From: Candidatus Latescibacterota bacterium
GTDB taxonomy: Bacteria > Latescibacterota > UBA2968 > UBA8231
Direction: 5' to 3'
DNA length: 64,000 nt
Assembly: GCA_965204725.1 (NCBI GenBank)
Contig: OZ242005.1
Span: 1,760,001-1,824,000, forward strand
This document shows, one piece after another, positions 1 through 7,786 of this stretch. The position numbers and the translations under genes are program-made. Positions within the stretch are counted from its first letter, which is position 1; every line of letters starts with the position of its first letter. The notes under the pieces were generated by a model, which saw nothing but the letters and a program-made list of their open reading frames with translations, made no database searches and was not told where the DNA came from.

Positions 1-1
1 A

Positions 2-640
2 GGCTCGGTTCAGCTCGACTCGCCCATGCTCTACGTGATGGGCTTTATCGGCCTGTTCACCATCGGCGGGCTGACGGGCCTGTTTCTTTCCACCTTGGGC
101 ACGGATGTCCATCTCCACGACACCTATTTCGTGGTCGCCCACTTTCACTACGTCATGGTGGGCGGCATGGTCATGGCGTTTCTGTGCGGCCTGCATTTTT
201 GGTGGCCTAAAATGACCGGGCGCATGTACTCGGAAGGGGCGGCCAAGCTCGGCGTCATGTTCGTCTTCGCCGGGTTCAACTTGACCTTCTTTCCCCAATT
301 TGTCTTGGGGTACTTGGGCATGCCGCGGCGCTATCACGCCTATCCCGAGGAGTGGCAAGCCCTCAACATCATGTCAACAGCCGGGGCCACCGTCCTCGGG
401 CTGGGCTTTTCCCTGACCATCGTCTATCTCCTCTGGTCCTTGTTCAAGGGCCAGAAGGCCACTGCCAATCCGTTCCAAGCCAAGGGCCTCGAATGGGATA
501 TTCCCTCGCCGCCCATCGCCCACAACTTTGAAGCCATTCCGATCGTTACTTGGGAAGCCTATCCCTACGGCGAGGAGGAACCCGCAGCACCGAGCAGCGA
601 GCCCGTACCTGAACGCGCTAAGGAGGACGAAGTTGTCTGA
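2..640 (+). CDS. ctaD: Cytochrome c oxidase subunit I, C-terminal part (5'-truncated by window edge)
   Basis: [13 protein letters not shown] heme-ligand motif, GMPRRY motif; frame open from base 2. Confidence 0.96.
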
Positions 641-1301
641 GCACGCACACAGCGCCCACCACCTACATCAGTTCGAGACCGCGCAGCAGCAATACGAAGC
701 CGCCAGCCTCGGCATGTGGGCGTTCATCATCCAAGAAATCCTGTTCTTCGGGGGGCTGTTCGGCGCGTACACCGTGTATCGCAACACCTATATCGAAGCC
801 TTTACCGCCGGCTCGCACCACCTCGACATCTTCTGGGGCACCTTCAACACCATCGTGCTAATCGCCAGCAGCCTGACCATGGCATTGGCTGTCCGCGCCG
901 CGCAGACCGACGCCGGTCGCAACGCGATTACCGGGTGGCTCGTCGCCACGATCCTTCTCGGCTGCGCCTTCTTGGGCGTCAAGTACATCGAGTACAGCCA
1001 CAAGTGGCTCGATAACCTCATCCCAGGCAGCATGTTCCAGTGGAACGACCCCGCCTTCCCCGAGGTTTCGCTCGGCAACGCCAAAATTTTCTTCTCGTTC
1101 TACTTCGTGATGACCGGGATGCACGCCTTGCACATGGTCATTGGCGTTGGCATCATGCTGTGGATGATCGTCAAAGTCCAGCGCAACGAGATTTCGGCTC
1201 AGTACTTTACGCCGATTGAAATCAGCGGCCTCTACTGGCACTTCGTGGATATCGTGTGGATTTTCCTCTTCCCCCTGCTCTATCTGATCGGACGCCACTA
1301 A
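633..1301 (+). CDS. ctaE: Cytochrome c oxidase subunit III
   Basis: [44 protein letters not shown]; TTG start after AGGAGG, overlapping the subunit I stop. Confidence 0.93.
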
Positions 1302-1630
1302 TGTCTGAACATCACGTAGTTCCGCTCAAGATCTACTTTCTGATCTTCTTCGCCCTAATGATTGGCACCGTCCTCACGGTCGCCGCGGCCTTCGTCGATA
1401 TGGGCTTTTTGAATACGCCGGTCGCCCTGATCATCGCCTTAGTAAAGGCATCGCTGGTCATTTTGTTCTTCATGCACGTAAAATACAGCCCCAAGCTGGT
1501 CGGGCTGTTTGCCGTGGCCGGCTTCTTCTGGCTGTGCATCCTGCTGGCCTTGACCATGCAGGATTACTACACGCGCGGCTGGGGCGAGGAAGCACCGGTG
1601 GAGTTTTTGCAGGAAGGGTCGTTCTTCTAA
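1301..1630 (+). CDS. ctaF: Cytochrome c oxidase subunit IV (caa3 type)
   Basis: KASLVILFFMHVKY motif, three TM helices, TAATG coupling to subunit III. Confidence 0.88.
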   Translation: MSEHHVVPLKIYFLIFFALMIGTVLTVAAAFVDMGFLNTPVALIIALVKASLVILFFMHVKYSPKLVGLFAVAGFFWLCILLALTMQDYYTRGWGEEAPVEFLQEGSFF

Positions 1631-1721
1631 GTTTTAAGTCGAGCCTTACCAAGGCACGGGCGAGAGATACTCGTCGCCAAGCCGTGGAGATTCGGCAGCG
1701 CATCCCTGCCGCTTCTGCATA

Positions 1722-1756
1722 AAAAAGCCCAAGCCGCTTTACACGGCTTGGGCTTT
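1722..1756. terminator. Bidirectional intrinsic terminator
   Basis: aaagcccaagccg-ctttaca-cggcttgggcttt hairpin between convergent gene blocks. Confidence 0.8.
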
Positions 1757-1777
1757 CGTCCTATACGCTTCCCCATT

Positions 1778-1960
1778 CTACTCTGTCGCTCGCGCCGCCT
1801 TGAGAAAGGCTACCACCTCCTTGTAGCACTCCTTCTTTTCGCCGCCCTCAATGTGGGAACCCCGGCCAGCCCATGTCAAGGCCATCCCTTCGGAGTTATT
1901 TTGTTTTGGGCGTTGACCTCGGCACCGAGATCCACCAAAAACTTTACTATCTCTAATTGA
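1778..1960 (-). pseudogene. Frameshifted remnant of an ankyrin gene 3' end
   Basis: Reads QLEIVKFLVDLGAEVNAQNK then in another frame NNSEGMALTWAG..YKEVVAFLKAA; DNA similar to 2465-2545. Confidence 0.7.
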
Positions 1961-1970
1961 AGTGGAGAGA

Positions 1971-2189
1971 CTACAAACGCTCCCAAGTTGTCCGACTAAC
2001 ACCGGCCTGCGCTAAAATTTTATTCAAAAGCCCACGGCCAATGTCGCCACGATGTGGGTTAGGCAGGACAAGACGCGTCTTATCTCGGACCATATACTGA
2101 TGATTCCCCCCAGAATAGGGGCCTTCAAATCCCAATCTCCTCAAATAGCGAATAAGATCGCGGTGACTCAGCGGTCCAAATTGGGGCAT
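1971..2189 (-). CDS. hicA: HicA family mRNA interferase toxin
   Basis: LRRLGFEGPYSGGNHQYM..LVLPNPHRGDIGRGLLNKILAQAG; ATG overlaps the upstream TGA. Confidence 0.9.
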   Translation of the reverse strand: MPQFGPLSHRDLIRYLRRLGFEGPYSGGNHQYMVRDKTRLVLPNPHRGDIGRGLLNKILAQAGVSRTTWERL

Positions 2190-3172
2190 CACACCGATTC
2201 CGGTACGCCCTCCAAGCGCACCCCATCCACTTCAGGAAGCAGATGGTTCATTTTCAATCCGAGGGTGATCCAGCCCTCAAGCACGGATTGCAATTCTTCG
2301 CGGCACTGTTCCAAGGTCTCCGCATTTGCATACACGCCTTGAAATCCGACAATTTCTCCATAAAACGTTTGATCGTCGAGTACCTCGAATGTCGTGCGTC
2401 TCATCGCCAACTGGATATATCGGGCCATTCTGAGAAAATCTGCCATCTCCTGATAGTCGCCCGCTTCGGCCCATGTCAAGGCCGTCTCACCGGAGTTATT
2501 TCGGTCGTTGACCTTCGCACCACGGTCCACCAAAAACTTCACCACCGCTAAACGATCGCTAACGGCGGCCTTCATCAAGGCCGTCCAGCCGCGGTTATCC
2601 TTGGCGTGGATATCGCCCCCCTTGGAAATCAAAAACTCCACGACCGCTAAATGGCCACCCCAAGCGGCCCGCATCAAGGCCGTCTCGCCATCTTTATTAC
2701 CGATGTTAATATCGGCCCCCTTACAAACCAAAAAGCGCACTACCGCTAAACGGTCCTCCATAGCAGCCTTCATCAAGGCCGTCCAGCCGACGTTGTTTTG
2801 GGCATTGACATCAACATCAGCCCCGCTAGCCACCAAAAACTTCACTACCGCTAAATGGCCGCCTTGAGCAGCCCACATCAAGGCCGTCCAACCATTCGCA
2901 TCGCGGATGTGAATATCCGCCCCCTCGGCCACTAAAAAGCGCACCATCGCCAAGTAGCCATCTTGGGCCGCCCACATCAAGCTGGTCGTCTGTCGCGCCC
3001 CTTGCCCAATATAGGACTTGAGCAATGCCTGCACCGACATGTCTCGGTTGGCGGCGACCTGCTTGAGAGAATGGAGTACATCCTTGGGTATCTCTATGGA
3101 TACCGTTTCCGTCGCACGAGGACGGAACGCAAGCGCAAATTCTTCTTTCTGTTTGGTTTCAGGCGTCTTCAT
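2189..3172 (-). CDS. Fusion protein: CopG/RHH-like antitoxin + about 6 ankyrin repeats + HicB antitoxin
   Basis: N-term RPRATETVSIEIPKDVLHSLKQVAANRDMSVQALLKSYIGQG; repeated TALMxAAxxGxLAVVKFLVxxGAD; C-term YIQLAMRRTTFEVLDDQTFYGEIVGFQGVYANAETLEQCREELQSVLEGW. Confidence 0.85.
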   Translation of the reverse strand: MKTPETKQKEEFALAFRPRATETVSIEIPKDVLHSLKQVAANRDMSVQALLKSYIGQGARQTTSLMWAAQDGYLAMVRFLVAEGADIHIRDANGWTALMWAAQGGHLAVVKFLVASGADVDVNAQNNVGWTALMKAAMEDRLAVVRFLVCKGADINIGNKDGETALMRAAWGGHLAVVEFLISKGGDIHAKDNRGWTALMKAAVSDRLAVVKFLVDRGAKVNDRNNSGETALTWAEAGDYQEMADFLRMARYIQLAMRRTTFEVLDDQTFYGEIVGFQGVYANAETLEQCREELQSVLEGWITLGLKMNHLLPEVDGVRLEGVPESV

Positions 3173-3452
3173 ATAACTTCCTTTCAGGAGGCGTTGCGCG
3201 ACGCGCAGATATGATGCGCGTCCATTGGTCTCGCTCTACGTAAACGACCAGCAAAATGCGTTGCTGAAACGAGTACCCAAGAATGAAATTCCGTTGTTCG
3301 GCACCCGTGGATGCGTCACCTATTTGATAAAAACGATCGAAGAAGACTTCGGCGGCTTCTTCAAAATGGACGTGATGCTTCTGCACATTGCTTTGGGCTT
3401 TGTTCTCATCCCACTGAAACCTGATGTCTTGAAGTTGGTATTCGATGTCCAC
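3159..3452 (-). CDS. brnT: BrnT family ribonuclease toxin
   Basis: FQWDENKAQSNVQKHHVHFEEAAEVFFD ... RIISARRAT. Confidence 0.92.
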   Translation of the reverse strand: MDIEYQLQDIRFQWDENKAQSNVQKHHVHFEEAAEVFFDRFYQIGDASTGAEQRNFILGYSFQQRILLVVYVERDQWTRIISARRATPPERKLYEDA

Positions 3453-3475
3453 AAGACGAAGGATCGCCTCCCCTA

Positions 3476-3718
3476 CTACTCTCCGCCCTCGTAAAGCCCT
3501 TTGCGGCTAACCGCGTACTCGGACAATGGGGGGCAATCGGGACCAACACAATCCATAAAATCGTCTGCCAACTGATCGGCTAGGGCCTCAAATTTATCAT
3601 CCGATAGCGGCTCTACCTTAACCTGCTCCCATGGGACGAATTCGATCAGCACGGATTGCTTCTCACCATTAGAATCCACGACAAACTGGGATTTTTGAAT
3701 CCGGTCAGCAACGCCCAT
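3476..3718 (-). CDS. Small antitoxin-like protein, apparently chimeric
   Basis: QFVVDSNGEKQSVLI N-terminus and LSEYAVSRKGLYE C-terminus each resemble small antitoxin-type proteins; located in the TA array. Confidence 0.5.
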   Translation of the reverse strand: MGVADRIQKSQFVVDSNGEKQSVLIEFVPWEQVKVEPLSDDKFEALADQLADDFMDCVGPDCPPLSEYAVSRKGLYEGGE

Positions 3719-3749
3719 TTCGTTCTTCTTTTTTGGTCCCAAACGGCCC

Positions 3750-3848
3750 TCACGCAATGTCGCGCACCAGCACCAAGATCGCCGCCTGCGGCACGACGAT
3801 AAACTTCTCGTCGTCGAACTTGATTTCTACCGCGTCTTTGCACAGGAA
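3750..3848 (-). repeat. 99-bp copy of the 3' end of the groES-like gene (5792-5890)
   Basis: 93/99 identical, includes stop codon; encodes FLCKDAVEIKFDDEKFIVVPQAAILVLVRDIA*. Confidence 0.95.
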
Positions 3849-3855
3849 TTTTGAC

Positions 3856-4332
3856 CTACCCTTTATCTGTTCCATCTTCTTGTTTCAACTCTAATTCATC
3901 GAGAACGAGCACGTCCACATCCGCTACACGTTTGAGTGCTTTATCGTTGGTTAAGAAAACCTGACAGTTCGCTGTCTTAGCAACGGCAACTTGTAATGCG
4001 TCAGGTGTGCGTAACCCATGTTGTGCCCGGAGAATAGCCGCTTGCTCGGCTACTTTTGCGTCAACAGGCAACGTATAGAAGTTGGCACTGTGAAGCAACA
4101 AATCGCGATATTCTTTTTGCAAATGAATCTCTCCTTGTTCCAGAGGCTGAGTTAAAACTTCCGTCAAGGTAATGACTGAAGTAAATCCTGTAATGATTCC
4201 TTGATGAATTCTGTGAAAAATCTCGGTAACTAATCTATGGTACGCGGGATTCATTTCGATTAGATAGATGATGGGCGCCGTATCGAATCCTACCCTTGTC
4301 ACATCCGCCAATGCGTCATCCAGTGCGATCAT
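3856..4332 (-). CDS. vapC: PIN-domain (VapC-like) toxin
   Basis: VGFDTAPIIY, SVITLTEVL, LRTPDALQVAVA, FLTNDKAL acidic PIN motifs. Confidence 0.9.
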   Translation of the reverse strand: MIALDDALADVTRVGFDTAPIIYLIEMNPAYHRLVTEIFHRIHQGIITGFTSVITLTEVLTQPLEQGEIHLQKEYRDLLLHSANFYTLPVDAKVAEQAAILRAQHGLRTPDALQVAVAKTANCQVFLTNDKALKRVADVDVLVLDELELKQEDGTDKG

Positions 4333-5464
4333 GGTTGGTATCCCATTCTTCACGAAGACGATCAACGTACGTTTGAGCATCTACCCCTTGCCAAATCTCT
4401 CTACCTAATCCACGCAACTCCAGAATACTCCGTTTTTTAGGCTCCTGTTGGGCGATGAGAGCCAATTTTAACCGGCGCAGATGCTCTGGCGAAGGATCCC
4501 ACCAAATAGGATTTGCCAACGATCCTTCTTGGCCTCGTAGCCTATCGTTGCACCGCTTCGTTTCCTTTGAATCTGCACGCGATTGCACATCTCCAACCTT
4601 TGCTAGGCGATGCAGGGGGACCGGCGTGTCATGGGTCAATTCTTCATAGAGACGGTTGCGTAACCATGCGACGTTCCGAGGTATGAGGTTATGGCCAAAC
4701 AGTTGGTTGGCAACATTCCCAATGCATCCATAGGTAGCCAGATGGCCAAATGGAATTTGCGTAATGATCAGGGCTACATGCCATCGCCACTCTCCCTTAG
4801 AGTTTCGCAACTGTGCTTCAATACCTTGCAAATCTTCTTCAATACCCTGCAAATCTTCTTTCGTAGTTTTTTTTATTGTATCGCAGTACTGGGCAAGCCT
4901 TTCGGCTACTTCATTCCCGAATTTTTCCAGCCGGGAGTCTAGGGATTCTCGCGTCTGTAGCAGCGACTCCTCCAACGCCTTGATACGTCGCTGTAGATGA
5001 GGATGAGGAACCATGGCGTATAGTTGCTTAGCCACTTCTAGGTCCAGCTCAATCCGACCTATCGAGTTGTAGAGGTAAGGGAGCTTGTTCCTGTACTCTT
5101 CCACCTTCCCCCCCACCAACTCATTGATCGCATCCCAGTCGAAGATGATAGGCGGCCGCTCCTCAGCAGGGATTAGCTCAAACCCCCTCCTCCACTCCTC
5201 GGCCTTCTTCAGCAGAGCAGGCAGACGTTCCGGCCAGTCGTGGAGCATGTTCGGCGAGAAGTCGGCTCCGGTAGGCCAAGTTGGGACCCCATCGTCCAGA
5301 TAAACTTGGTTGAACAGTTTGAGGTCCTTTAGGGGACTATATATCCGGCCTGATAAGATAGGACGAAGATCGGCCTCTTGGCATGTACCGTCCTCAAAGG
5401 AGGCCCGTAGCTTGTAGGGACCTATCACTTCCAGACGGATCACTTTATGAAGTTTATAATCCAC
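4316..5464 (-). CDS. Fusion protein: DUF2442 antitoxin-like + coiled coil + MGMT/ATL-like DNA-binding domain + VapB-like tail
   Basis: YKLRASFEDG..LFNQVYLDDGVPTWPTGADFSP; QIPFGHLATYGCIG..PRNVA..VPLHRL; KRSILELRGLGREIWQGVDAQTYVDRLREEWD. Confidence 0.75.
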   Translation of the reverse strand: MDYKLHKVIRLEVIGPYKLRASFEDGTCQEADLRPILSGRIYSPLKDLKLFNQVYLDDGVPTWPTGADFSPNMLHDWPERLPALLKKAEEWRRGFELIPAEERPPIIFDWDAINELVGGKVEEYRNKLPYLYNSIGRIELDLEVAKQLYAMVPHPHLQRRIKALEESLLQTRESLDSRLEKFGNEVAERLAQYCDTIKKTTKEDLQGIEEDLQGIEAQLRNSKGEWRWHVALIITQIPFGHLATYGCIGNVANQLFGHNLIPRNVAWLRNRLYEELTHDTPVPLHRLAKVGDVQSRADSKETKRCNDRLRGQEGSLANPIWWDPSPEHLRRLKLALIAQQEPKKRSILELRGLGREIWQGVDAQTYVDRLREEWDTNHDRTG

Positions 5465-5469
5465 TTGTT

Positions 5470-5730
5470 TTATCTCTCTGGCGGCTCAATAGGATCGGGG
5501 ACGACGCCTTGCTGCAACTGTTCCCAAGCAGCTTCCAGATCTTCTACATGATCTTCAGCCCAGTTCATCACTTGTCGATGCTTATTCCTTGGCAGTGAAC
5601 CCCCTATTACCTCTATATTGCCTGAATCAACGGCATAAACAGCCTCATCCCCCGAATAACTCGCATGAAAGTGCGGTCGATGGTGAGGGCTACCTACTTC
5701 CGAGAACATTCGGTCAGATAGTGATTCCAT
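5470..5730 (-). CDS. DUF4160 family protein (putative toxin partnered with DUF2442), N-terminus atypical
   Basis: HHRPHFHASY..A..GSLPRNKHRQVMNWAEDHVEDLEAAWE..PIEP. Confidence 0.8.
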   Translation of the reverse strand: MESLSDRMFSEVGSPHHRPHFHASYSGDEAVYAVDSGNIEVIGGSLPRNKHRQVMNWAEDHVEDLEAAWEQLQQGVVPDPIEPPER

Positions 5731-5791
5731 AAAACTCCGCAAGTTTCGGCATAAAACTCCGTTAAACAGAGTCGATTCAAGGCTTGCTTCG

Positions 5792-6154
5792 TCAAGCAAT
5801 ATCGCGCACCAGCACCAAGATTGCCGCCTGCGGCACGACGATAAACTTCTCGTCGTCGAACTTGATTTCCACCGCGTCCTTGCGCAGGAAAATGGCGTGA
5901 TCGCCCTTTTTGGCTTGGAGGCCGATGTAGCGCATCTGCTCGCTCCCCTCCTCCCAAGGTACGCCGTCGTCATCGGCCTTCGGCGGCAAGGGAACGCCCG
6001 GCCCCACCTCTTCGACGCGCCCGCTTTGCACGTTCTCCTTTTCCAAAGCGGTCGGCGGCAAATAAAGCCCCACGGCCGTGCGCTCTTCCATGTCGTCAAC
6101 CCGGATGAGTACGCGGTCGCCGACTACGTATAGTTCTTTGTCGCCCCGGATCAT
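5792..6154 (-). CDS. GroES/Cpn10-family co-chaperonin-like protein (orphan, no groEL)
   Basis: VGDRVLI..GLYLP..GRVEEVGPG..KKGD..EKFIVVPQAAIL. Confidence 0.85.
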   Translation of the reverse strand: MIRGDKELYVVGDRVLIRVDDMEERTAVGLYLPPTALEKENVQSGRVEEVGPGVPLPPKADDDGVPWEEGSEQMRYIGLQAKKGDHAIFLRKDAVEIKFDDEKFIVVPQAAILVLVRDIA

Positions 6155-6155
6155 T

Positions 6156-6413
6156 TCACCTCGTTAGTAGCGGCAAAAGCTGATTGACTAGCACGGCAAC
6201 CACGACCGCGGCGGCGATCTTCCAGCCGAGCTTGTTCAGGTCATCGCGCACTTTGTTTAGCTCACCGCGTACTTTGTTTAGCTCGCTGTGCATTTCTCTG
6301 CGCAGGTCTCCTAACTGATCTTCTACGCGGCCCAACCGTTCGTTCATCTGCCGCATTTCGCCGCGCAATTCGCCTAAATGCTCGGCGCGTTCTTCTGTCT
6401 CGCTCAAGGCCAT
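6156..6413 (-). CDS. Small coiled-coil protein with C-terminal TM anchor
   Basis: Heptad repeats ELNKVRG/ELNKVRD (21-bp tandem), hydrophobic C-terminus, AGGAG RBS. Confidence 0.75.
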   Translation of the reverse strand: MALSETEERAEHLGELRGEMRQMNERLGRVEDQLGDLRREMHSELNKVRGELNKVRDDLNKLGWKIAAAVVVAVLVNQLLPLLTR

Positions 6414-6449
6414 GCTCCACGCTCCTTTCTTGGGTAATCCGTTGAGTTC

Positions 6450-7664
6450 CTAGGACGCCAGTCGCAAACACTCGCCGTAGCGCTCAAAGCGCTCCCCTTC
6501 CTCCTCGGCTGGATCGACGTACTTGAGCCAAAGGGCGCTGTCCTTCTTGGCACCGCTGAGGTCGCGGCGGCTGCCCAAGTGGCTGGGATCCGCGCCGTTC
6601 CACACCACTTGGCCGTCCTGCATGTAGATGAACTCCCCTCGATAGCGGTCGATTAGCGGCTGCTGTTGGTCTTGGTAGATCAGCCCCTGTTCGCAGGTGG
6701 TGCGCCGCCAGTTGGCCACGGTGGCGTCTGAGTCCGTAGATACCGAGTCAAATTCGGCCAGCGGCGCCTCGACCTCGCTCGCAAAGTCAATCTCGGCCAA
6801 ATCCACCGTGCCAAAGCCGCGCTCGGCCGCGATCAGCAGGTGATTGCGGTCGCGGCGGAAAGGCGGGGTCGGCCAATCGGATTGGGGATCGTGGCCCATC
6901 AAGGTCATGCCGCAGGCGTCGGTCGCCACCGGGTGATCGCCGGCCATCAAGGCATTGCAAATCCGGCCCTCGCCGCCCCATTCGCGGCCCCATTGGCCGG
7001 TGAGGGCCTCGACGATGTTGAGGCAGGGCTTGGTAATCAGGCCCAAGTCCGGCAGGACGTAGGAAAGCCGGATTAGGTGGTGATAGTACGAGCGCGTCCG
7101 CCCTTCCGGCGGGATCATCGGCGGCAGGCCAAAGAGGTTTTTCAGGGTCAAGGTAATGCCCATGAAGGCGTGGTTCTTCATCTTGGCGATGGATACCATC
7201 TCATCGGCCTCGGCAAAGACCGAGTTGAGCACGTATTGGTCGAACATGCAGCCGCCGTCCGGCACGGCAAAGGTAGTAAAGGGCGGCAAATTGCCATCGA
7301 CAAAGCGGACGCCAAACTCGTCCAACAAGTAGCGGTAGTTAAAATCGTCTGGGGTCACGTGGCCGTTGCCGTAGGGATAGGTATCTACGGCCACGAGCTC
7401 GGCCGTCGTCCGCTCCCGCAACAGGCGCAACACCGCCCGAGCCATGGCGTCATCGACCAATTCTCGGCGGCGACCGGCGAAATACTCAACGCGCTCCGGC
7501 GGCTTAATCATGTTGAATTTCAGGGCGATCCGCCGCGCTTTGGCCAACTTCTCCCACGAGCGGTCCAGCGGTTCGGTCGTGCGCTTGAGCACTTGGTATA
7601 TCTCCTCGTCGCTGGCTTGATGATCGCAATGCGACGCTCGGACCTTGTACTGTTTGTCGTTCAT
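6450..7664 (-). CDS. DUF362 family (putative Fe-S) protein
   Basis: LKFN, KMKNHAFMGITLTLKNLFG, HPVATDAC motifs. Confidence 0.8.
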   Translation of the reverse strand: MNDKQYKVRASHCDHQASDEEIYQVLKRTTEPLDRSWEKLAKARRIALKFNMIKPPERVEYFAGRRRELVDDAMARAVLRLLRERTTAELVAVDTYPYGNGHVTPDDFNYRYLLDEFGVRFVDGNLPPFTTFAVPDGGCMFDQYVLNSVFAEADEMVSIAKMKNHAFMGITLTLKNLFGLPPMIPPEGRTRSYYHHLIRLSYVLPDLGLITKPCLNIVEALTGQWGREWGGEGRICNALMAGDHPVATDACGMTLMGHDPQSDWPTPPFRRDRNHLLIAAERGFGTVDLAEIDFASEVEAPLAEFDSVSTDSDATVANWRRTTCEQGLIYQDQQQPLIDRYRGEFIYMQDGQVVWNGADPSHLGSRRDLSGAKKDSALWLKYVDPAEEEGERFERYGECLRLAS

Positions 7665-7786
7665 GGGGCTCTCCTTTTGGGCCTTTTCACTGTGTGGGCT
7701 AGGTGATATATTGAAAAAACATATCGTGCGACTCTTCTATGTCAAGCCGGCCGTTTTTCCCTCTCATCCACAGCAAAGGACATCCC

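Follow-up and report, generated by a model that had tools for sequence, protein, structure and literature searches.

Type II antitoxins are usually small two-part proteins. Canonical HicB has its own C-terminal DNA-binding domain, either ribbon-helix-helix (RHH) or helix-turn-helix (HTH), and the canonical Escherichia coli order places hicA before hicB. For BrnTA, the published description gives a toxin-antitoxin gene order, an RHH in BrnA, and repression of the operon by BrnA (PMC11980606). Here we analyze a stretch of 64,000 nucleotides from a Candidatus Latescibacterota bacterium (the window), in which a single gene, brnA::ANK::hicB, joins a BrnA-type RHH module, six ankyrin repeats, and a HicB domain, and lies between a brnT and a hicA toxin gene. 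On balance, we favor the view that it is a genuine, evolutionarily young chimeric double antitoxin, linking BrnT and HicA through a single polypeptide within a single operon.

The locus resembles BrnTA of Brucella abortus (PF04365, PF12441) in that a BrnT-family toxin is encoded first and its gene overlaps that of an RHH antitoxin. It differs in that the antitoxin part is short and falls below the profile cut-off, with ~20 residues before the RHH compared with ~39 in the Pfam profile, and in that six ankyrin repeats and then another antitoxin domain come after the RHH. As in HicAB pairs of the UPF0150 type (TTHA0281/2dsy, 1whz), the UPF0150 and HicA matches exceed their cut-offs, no DNA-binding domain is present in HicB, and hicB precedes hicA with overlapping stop and start, the arrangement of stand-alone pairs in relatives and the opposite of the E. 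coli order. In contrast to those pairs, HicB here lacks the first four of its codons along with its start, and forms the C-terminal part of a longer polypeptide.

The family is prone to in-frame gene fusion, with 28 prokaryotic and 4 eukaryotic BrnT-BrnA fusions reported in PMC11980606 and two BrnT-RHH read-throughs (P0143, P0154) among the matches to our N-terminal module. Those fusions join a toxin to its own antitoxin, whereas here two unrelated antitoxins are joined through repeats and the toxins are separate genes. Polymorphic toxin systems, according to PMC3482391, include Imm-ank immunity proteins and multi-domain "polyimmunity" proteins; ankyrin repeats on the protective side and several protective domains per polypeptide are shared with our locus, which differs in that its toxins are small cytoplasmic type II RNases. 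No polymorphic toxin, secretion or trafficking domain, or immunity-gene array was found within positions 1..7700, where the neighbors of the fused gene are BrnT, HicA, a PIN protein, DUF4160/DUF2442, and a Cpn10-like gene. CapRel is a fused toxin-antitoxin sensor whose antitoxin-like domain recognizes a phage protein. A preliminary description of our locus, made from its letters, proposed a similar coupling of a recognition surface to toxin release; the locus differs from CapRel in that no trigger is evident, its toxins are encoded apart from the sensor, and its architecture bears no relation to that of CapRel. In a partial literature search, which is no proof of absence, we found neither an ankyrin-bearing type II antitoxin nor a polypeptide combining BrnA and HicB.

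The fused gene, its three parts, and the two toxin genes are located as follows:

2189..3172, minus strand: fused gene brnA::ANK::hicB, an unbroken open reading frame (ORF) of 327 aa plus TGA stop
2987..3172, minus strand: BrnA-type RHH module, aa 1-62 (profile, phmmer, context, and AlphaFold2 evidence)
2429..2986, minus strand: six ankyrin repeats, aa 63-248 (Pfam Ank, repeat families D1-D4, AlphaFold2, Foldseek)
2192..2428, minus strand: HicB/UPF0150 domain, aa 249-327 (Pfam PF21748, PDB 2dsy)
3159..3452, minus strand: brnT, a 97-aa BrnT-family RNase toxin with a GTG start (Pfam BrnT_toxin)
1971..2192, minus strand: hicA, a 73-aa RNase toxin (Pfam HicA_toxin)

The three-part anatomy is real and well supported. 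The preliminary description had reported an unbroken frame, an RHH/CopG-like N-terminus (aa 1-60), five ankyrin repeats plus a cap (aa 62-250), and a HicB domain (aa 250-327), placed between brnT and hicA. These points hold with small adjustments: the frame has 327 codons and zero internal stops, the first module is of the BrnA type by family and context and covers aa 1-62, the array consists of six repeats (aa 63-248) of which the last is a canonical cap, the quoted repeat motifs are present, and the HicB domain matches its profile at aa 251-313. The predicted product is 36 kDa. Its AlphaFold2 model, built from an alignment of 25 rows, has a mean local confidence (pLDDT) of 85 and a predicted template modeling score (pTM) of 0.81. 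In this model, residues 24-55 form a strand-helix-helix, residues 64-257 six helix pairs, and residues 260-307 the HicB sheet of three strands with its long helix; the final ankyrin helix (241-257) runs uninterrupted into the first helix of HicB.

Both flanking toxins match their families above the Pfam cut-offs. BrnT (PF04365) scores 87.9 bits against a cut-off of 34.5 (E 5.5e-25), matches the solved structures 7vd7 (E 3.9e-9) and 3u97, which is BrnT (E 0.011), and has 350 homologues, mostly of 97 aa, several of which are named "BrnT family toxin" by their sources. HicA scores 49.4 bits against 27 (E 5e-13) and aligns with PDB 1whz (E 2.3e-5), where the His of its GGNH motif, presumably the catalytic residue, falls on a His. 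The last 14 nt of brnT overlap the start of the fused gene (brnT stop at 3159, ATG at 3172), and at the other end its TGA shares nucleotides with the hicA start (GTG, then ATG); the three genes thus overlap as they would in a single operon. A Shine-Dalgarno-like AAAGGAAG is located within the 3' end of brnT, 6 nt 5' of the fused-gene ATG. In a promoter scan of 1600-4000, the count of sigma-70-like sites was 0, compared with an average of 1.9 in shuffled sequence, though this lineage may use other promoters.

Assignment of the N-terminal module to the BrnA type comes from genomic context and not from curated models. Within residues 1-62, the conserved RPR..E motif is followed by a strand and a pair of helices, and these by GQG.RQ. 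In the AlphaFold2 model, the strand (24-29) and helices (30-42 and 47-55) have low confidence, which is expected of an RHH monomer. Searching 1.84 billion cluster representatives with aa 1-64 (phmmer, E<=1e-3) returned 153 matches. Among the 150 matches listed, most are proteins of 52-143 aa that match through their own N-terminal 55-60 residues and share the core "RPR..E.V.L.IP.DTL.SL..VA..RDMS.EALLKFYIGQGLRQD"; some are tail-less, at just 63 aa (P0142, P0144), and ankyrin repeats occur in P0004 and P0125 only. In one relative (locus L033), a 97-aa brnT is followed by an overlapping gene for a BrnA of ~105 aa, which is 75% identical to ours over aa 1-61 and continues into a helical tail after the conserved core. 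In the ankyrin-bearing forms (BrnA::ANK), the array starts at the point where stand-alone relatives run into their tail "DIASLFGARVLQTTETVLARH...". Because of these stand-alone relatives and the L033 gene, we take aa 1-62 to be the entire conserved core of a short BrnA-type antitoxin, from an RHH family that adjoins brnT. Regions 5' of brnT, aligned in four loci, had no common or operator-like palindrome that we recognized.

For the central array, the Pfam matches are to the Ank (E 1.1e-47) and Ank_2 (E 1.6e-50) models, and extend from about aa 41 to aa 250. Its repeat period is 99 nt, with one repeat of 105 nt, and the cap, which we call tail1, reads EAGDYQEMADFLR. Foldseek aligned the ankyrin part with DARPins at a root-mean-square deviation of 0.7 A and 39-42% identity; searches of the ESM Atlas and of the PDB with Foldseek gave nothing beyond ankyrin proteins and DARPins. 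At a minimum, the array would serve as a rigid spacer; it might in addition have a binding target, either a conserved partner or, in place of the lost BrnA tail, BrnT itself.

The C-terminal domain matches UPF0150 (HicB-like, PF21748) with 90.6 bits against a cut-off of 27.3 (E 5.9e-26), and its nearest solved structure is TTHA0281 (PDB 2dsy, E 3.6e-11). The protein terminates 14 residues past the UPF0150 match and so has no DNA-binding domain, like the stand-alone HicB relatives of 80 aa.

The junction between the array and HicB can be placed to the codon by comparison with relatives. Ankyrin-bearing BrnA proteins that end without HicB close with a tail of the form "...GGEKK.CYEEVVAFLKAAGATE*", which we call tail2. 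Over the 45 nt that precede the Y252 codon, 30/45 positions agree with tail2, a level reached by 3/500 shuffles; this stretch shows no likeness to the region 5' of stand-alone hicB. In this alignment, ATG-GCC-CGA (M-A-R) pairs with GCG-GCG-CGA (A-A-R), four codons ahead of the tail2 stop. From the aligned sequences, the junction is an ankyrin tail, cut four codons short of its stop and joined to hicB at codon 5: M249-A-R (2420..2428) is still ankyrin-tail sequence, and the hicB-derived portion runs from Y252 onward (2192..2419). On this mapping, neither the start codon nor the leader of hicB has survived.

The same joint recurs in every fusion found. The pattern "ETAL..AEAG..QE.ADFLR[MV]A.YIQ" is invariant and the frame is open across the junction in 7/7 fusions, with Met at position 249 in three and Val in four. 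By this comparison, the Met of "MARYIQ" is a substitution within ankyrin-derived sequence. The preliminary description had suggested an internal start at MARYIQ; the residue is not the old hicB start. We also considered M249 as the ancestral hicB start with the preceding stretch as its leader, and this was ruled out, as the stretch is ankyrin-tail DNA.

Since repeat genes are readily misassembled, we compared contigs from four public runs of four studies over 1700-3500, all of the DNA type. In run X6, one 11.2-kb contig spans the whole interval with 62 substitutions and 3 small gaps (~96.5% identical), including T>C at 2428 in codon 249. A contig of run X5 covers 2246-2644 with zero differences and bridges the ankyrin-HicB junction, and one of run X3 covers 1827-2422, with the relic described below, hicA, and hicB. 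In run X10, 2472 is joined to 2771, a net loss of 297 nt (99 codons), which matches a 226-aa protein (P0003) that has three repeats fewer and still keeps brnA and hicB in frame. Independent metagenome contigs with the same arrangement indicate that it is not a misassembly.

The complete architecture is confined to few sequences. Among 41 genomes (our own and 40 relatives), a whole-protein search found a match over the full 1-327 in 1 only, our own. A query spanning the junction, run across 168 genomes of the phylum, gave HicB matches in 53, which extended into the ankyrin part only in our own genome (G000) and in G007. In G007, at the same genomic site (L014), a 121-aa frame consists of one ankyrin repeat plus HicB, and hicA is frameshifted and split over two frames. 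Of the proteins longer than 140 aa in a collection of 5.8 billion, 7 match the HicB domain and 5 of these are ANK::HicB: P0001 and P0002 are three-part proteins 94% and 87% identical to ours, P0121 and P0122 have ankyrin repeats and HicB without the BrnA module, and the fifth is P0003. The three-part form was thus found only in our own genome and in three near-identical metagenome protein clusters (P0001, P0002, P0003), which places it in a single narrow bacterial lineage. A metagenome scan with the junction alignment recovered two stand-alone hicB loci only.

Its parts are more widespread. BrnA::ANK without HicB, with brnT 5' and ending in tail2, is found in G006/L037, G023/L038, L036, and L039, in genomes labeled as Candidatus Latescibacterota metagenome-assembled genomes and one as Gemmatimonadota. 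The L039 arrangement, Cpn10-like > brnT > brnA::ANK < cox, puts brnA::ANK at the same site as the relic in the window. At L040 (G011, 5001..5400), in the same island, brnA::ANK is broken into several frames and is a pseudogene. Stand-alone hicB, of 80 aa and beginning MLT[TA]YIQ, is common among relatives; compared over 79 aligned residues in 12 fetched loci, the fused HicB is 74-79% identical to it in 10/12, 68% in L031, and matches over just 65 residues in L032. In the fetched loci, hicA comes after stand-alone hicB and its start overlaps hicB; the hicA match is full-length in 6/12.

We observed HicB in other contexts as well: P0123 is a 143-aa HicB-HicA read-through, P0124 (321 aa) is an MFS-like membrane protein with an N-terminal HicB, and a HicB-like piece lies within a 419-aa open frame at G143:C1:1192967-1193113. 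In relatives where hicA is partial or split (6/12 loci and G007), hicB is intact, suggesting that the toxin is lost before the antitoxin.

Two further features lie beyond hicA:

1778..1956, minus strand: relic of a displaced ankyrin 3' end (frames read from sequence; similarity to L036/L038)
1720..1760, no strand assigned: G+C-rich hairpin with a T run, and an A run on the other strand (read directly from sequence)

The relic begins 14 nt past the hicA stop and reads "LEIVKFLVDLGAEVNAQN", then, after a 1-nt frameshift, "NNSEGMALTWAGRGSHIEGGEKKECYKEVVAFLKAARATE*", which is tail2. Window positions 1722-1886, comprising the last 109 nt of the relic and 56 nt past its stop, are 88.5% identical over 165 nt to the BrnA::ANK 3' end and downstream flank of L036, and the relic region is 82% identical to L038 over 217 nt. 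The fused gene's own last repeats are 74-79% like the relic and its own tail 67%. Direct repeats of ~90 nt thus flank hicBA, at 1867-1956 and 2467-2551. The hairpin probably terminates transcription arriving from either side, including that of the convergent cytochrome oxidase gene, which ends at 1630; it was not among the results of a simple terminator scan.

Selection on the parts was estimated as the ratio of nonsynonymous to synonymous substitution rates (dN/dS). These are rough figures, from pairwise Nei-Gojobori comparisons on a mosaic, recombining repeat gene. Against four BrnA::ANK orthologues, the ankyrin part gave 0.20-0.35 and the N-terminal module 0.26-0.45; for HicB the ratio was 0.10-0.26 in comparisons with six stand-alone genes and 0.49 in that with G007, and hicA gave 0.16-0.22 against five intact relatives. 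By this measure, all parts, the array included, are kept by purifying selection in their families. Relative to L036 the fused gene is a mosaic: at the nucleotide level, its N-domain is 95% identical, and its repeats R1 to R6 are 93, 91, 72, 89, 78, and 70% identical.

Recombination among ankyrin-repeat genes, in one step or two, is probably the simplest account of this record. The lineage has a family of brnT-brnA operons whose short RHH BrnA bears a C-terminal ankyrin array where stand-alone BrnA has its helical tail. Within the toxin-antitoxin island, recombination among such genes would then have joined brnA::ANK in frame to hicB-hicA, when an ankyrin cap already fused to hicB-hicA was brought into the resident brnA::ANK gene. 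The joining would have removed the hicB start and upstream region, and the resident ankyrin 3' end would have been displaced behind hicA, where it appears to be decaying. The ANK::HicB forms without BrnA may be ancestors or truncated descendants. With the junction, the relic, intermediates, and deletion variants all preserved, the locus is an unusually clear record of how an architecture arose, and the two-headed antitoxin appears, from these comparisons, to be a young and local product of recombination in a cassette hotspot, made on an ankyrin-bearing BrnA.

Based on the anatomy and on what is known of the two families, we infer how the protein might act in binding, neutralization, and repression, and what the repeats might contribute. 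The operon brnT - brnA::ANK::hicB - hicA would be translated with coupled starts. Its 36-kDa product would dimerize through the N-terminal RHH and repress the operon, as BrnA does. The N-terminal 60 residues would hold BrnT and the C-terminal UPF0150 domain would hold HicA, so that the abundance of a single polypeptide would govern both RNases. The ankyrin rod would act as a rigid connector into HicB helix 1, and could in addition contact a conserved partner. Given that hicB lacks a start of its own, the intact hicA beside it argues that the fused HicB works.

Several observations weigh against this interpretation. The N-terminal module falls below curated cut-offs, both for CopG_antitoxin (PF12441; aa 19-55, E 8.5e-5, 23.7 bits, cut-off 28) and for NCBIfam BrnA (NF047399; E 0.0027, 17.8 bits, cut-off 60), although the phmmer relatives and the brnT-adjacent gene of L033 rescue these calls. 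The ANK::HicB junction is rare and young, being present in 2/168 phylum genomes. hicA is partial or absent in 6/12 stand-alone loci (L024, L025, L026, L027, L028, L032); such frequent partial and split matches imply that hicBA often decays, and the copy in the window could be on the same path. Natural variants without the 99 codons (P0003, X10) or with one repeat (G007/L014) exist, so the array is dispensable for whatever HicB does. Finally, codon 249 is an ATG with GGAG 18 nt upstream, and some initiation may occur there; the wide spacing is a weak argument against it, because the brnT start itself has GGAGG 14 nt upstream.

This last point leads to the alternative that fares best, namely that the fusion is formal only: HicB would be made mainly as a separate protein of ~79 aa from M249 (ATG, or GTG in relatives), and the long product, if made, would matter only as BrnA::ANK. 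Besides the GGAG, it can draw on the protein alignment, in which the codon-249 ATG stands one codon from the stand-alone HicB start, and on G007, where HicB persists behind a single ankyrin repeat. We nevertheless consider it unlikely. The Met aligns to an Ala of tail2, the first four codons of hicB and its upstream region are gone, position 249 is Val in 4/7 fusions (the T>C at 2428 in X6 falls in this codon), the frame through the junction is open in all seven, and the scan of 1600-4000 offered no promoter-like site.

It is also doubtful, if conceivable, that the array itself binds toxin, having replaced the helical tail of stand-alone BrnA and clamping BrnT or both toxins. The array begins exactly where the stand-alone tail does, its groove bears conserved aromatic residues, and in many RHH antitoxins the toxin-binding part is C-terminal to the RHH. 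Ankyrin repeats are moreover catalogued as Imm-ank immunity proteins of polymorphic toxins in PMC3482391. On the other side, the tail-less 63-aa relatives suggest that the N-terminal motif and RHH may suffice, P0003 retains brnA and hicB in frame after losing three repeats, and canonical BrnA has its RHH at the C-terminus (PMC11980606).

A neutral or decaying chimera, a by-product of cassette shuffling with one or both modules non-functional, seems to us improbable too. The rarity of the fusion, the neighboring relic, the L040 pseudogene, the frequent decay of hicA in relatives, and the mosaic relation to L036 all fit it. Yet none of the three genes (brnT, the fused gene, hicA) is broken, the dN/dS values lie well below 1, and the arrangement recurs in contigs of four runs from four studies, ~96.5% identical in X6; an intact hicA without a working HicB would presumably be counter-selected.

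Before turning to the remaining alternative, the surroundings need description. Positions 1630..7664 form a toxin-antitoxin island of variable content, bordered on one side by the cytochrome oxidase operon and on the other by a Cpn10-like gene (5792..6154, minus strand) plus a DUF362 gene (6450..7664, minus strand), and the same site in relatives (L013, L014, L038, L039) holds differing sets of cassettes. The last ~30 codons of the Cpn10-like gene ("KDAVEIKFDDEKFIVVPQAAILVLVRDIA") are duplicated ~2 kb downstream at 3750..3875 (minus strand), which suggests that the DUF4160/DUF2442/PIN block was inserted with duplication of this 3' end. Within the block, a DUF4160 gene (5470..5760, minus strand; E 1.6e-16) is followed by a DUF2442 gene (4316..5464, minus strand), whose protein has a coiled coil and a weak MGMT-DNA-binding-like end. 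A 93-aa ORF at 3476..3757 (minus strand), 23 nt upstream of brnT, matches no family; a relative in L012 (84..536) has 150 aa and by eye a Phd/YefM-type-like N-terminus, and the copy in the window seems internally deleted by comparison.

In other genomes and proteins, the same DUF2442 head is joined to ankyrin repeats ending in tail2 in G019 (L013 620..895, 841..2115) and in P0019. As both DUF2442 and BrnA heads carry a tail2 array, two unrelated antitoxin-like heads share the ankyrin module. A simple motif scan of our own genome found 16 ankyrin ORFs, with toxin-antitoxin domains only in the fused gene. Ankyrin genes are clustered at other places in this genome (e.g. C1:2575761-2581080 and C1:2656844-2660801), and several of the clustered genes have a predicted membrane-anchor-like N-terminus ("...RFKQLAVALGVAAVLVGGLSLF...").

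The preliminary description saw a receptor wired to two RNases. The wiring stands, with one frame in which each module adjoins its own toxin, while the proposed displacement of the toxins by a ligand is unsupported. In its fuller form, the array would be a sensor, and binding of a phage or host protein would cause a change or proteolysis that frees both RNases, in a manner like abortive infection. Purifying selection on the array in BrnA::ANK keeps a binding role possible, and G019 has at the same site a tail2-ending array fused to a DUF2442 antitoxin-like protein beside a DUF4160 gene. Ankyrin proteins among PADLOC defence candidates also match the fused protein (PDC-M72A, E 2e-52; MzaA, E 1e-16), a likeness at the level of the repeats: the matches cover ankyrin only (profile positions 100-185 of 392 for PDC-M72 and 14-91 of 683 for MzaA), and NCBIfam MzaA reaches 107 bits against a cut-off of 800. 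PADLOC found nothing on the neighbors except a weak JetD match to the 382-aa DUF2442 ORF (E 0.0076).

The repeat surface is the other argument for a sensor. Among 8 orthologues, surface positions are more variable than the remaining ones (0.37 vs. 0.20, Mann-Whitney P = 5e-4). Such an excess is expected for any ankyrin domain and is not evidence of diversifying selection. The preliminary description had proposed comparing the variable ankyrin residues across homologues; in that comparison, groove positions 5 (W/W/E/W/E) and 10 (W/W/K/R/K) turned out to be nearly invariant instead of diversified, a poor fit to an arms race. With no ligand, phage context, or defence-system partner found at the locus, three-repeat and one-repeat variants that persist, and two-toxin wiring that looks like a recent recombination accident which left a relic and is found in 2/168 genomes, we regard the receptor model as highly improbable. 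We give as little credence to the broader idea that the array works as an antitoxin-borne recognition module for a conserved protein, cellular or invading, where one binding or degradation event would free BrnT and HicA together, and where arrays would serve as recombination handles for swapping heads (BrnA, DUF2442) and tails (plain cap, HicB).

Returning to the double antitoxin that we favor, the locus is unusual in two respects. It belongs to an antitoxin family that has a folded repeat domain under purifying selection (BrnA::ANK, with DUF2442::ANK at the same site), and one member of this family is a single polypeptide that would serve two RNase toxins with no relation to each other. A working fused protein would be a natural test of stoichiometry, proteolysis, and autoregulation with two toxins per antitoxin. 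If the protein does not work, the locus would be a snapshot of cassette turnover in a toxin-antitoxin hotspot. Should the array prove to be a recognition module after all, it would represent a modular route to rewiring toxin-antitoxin systems.

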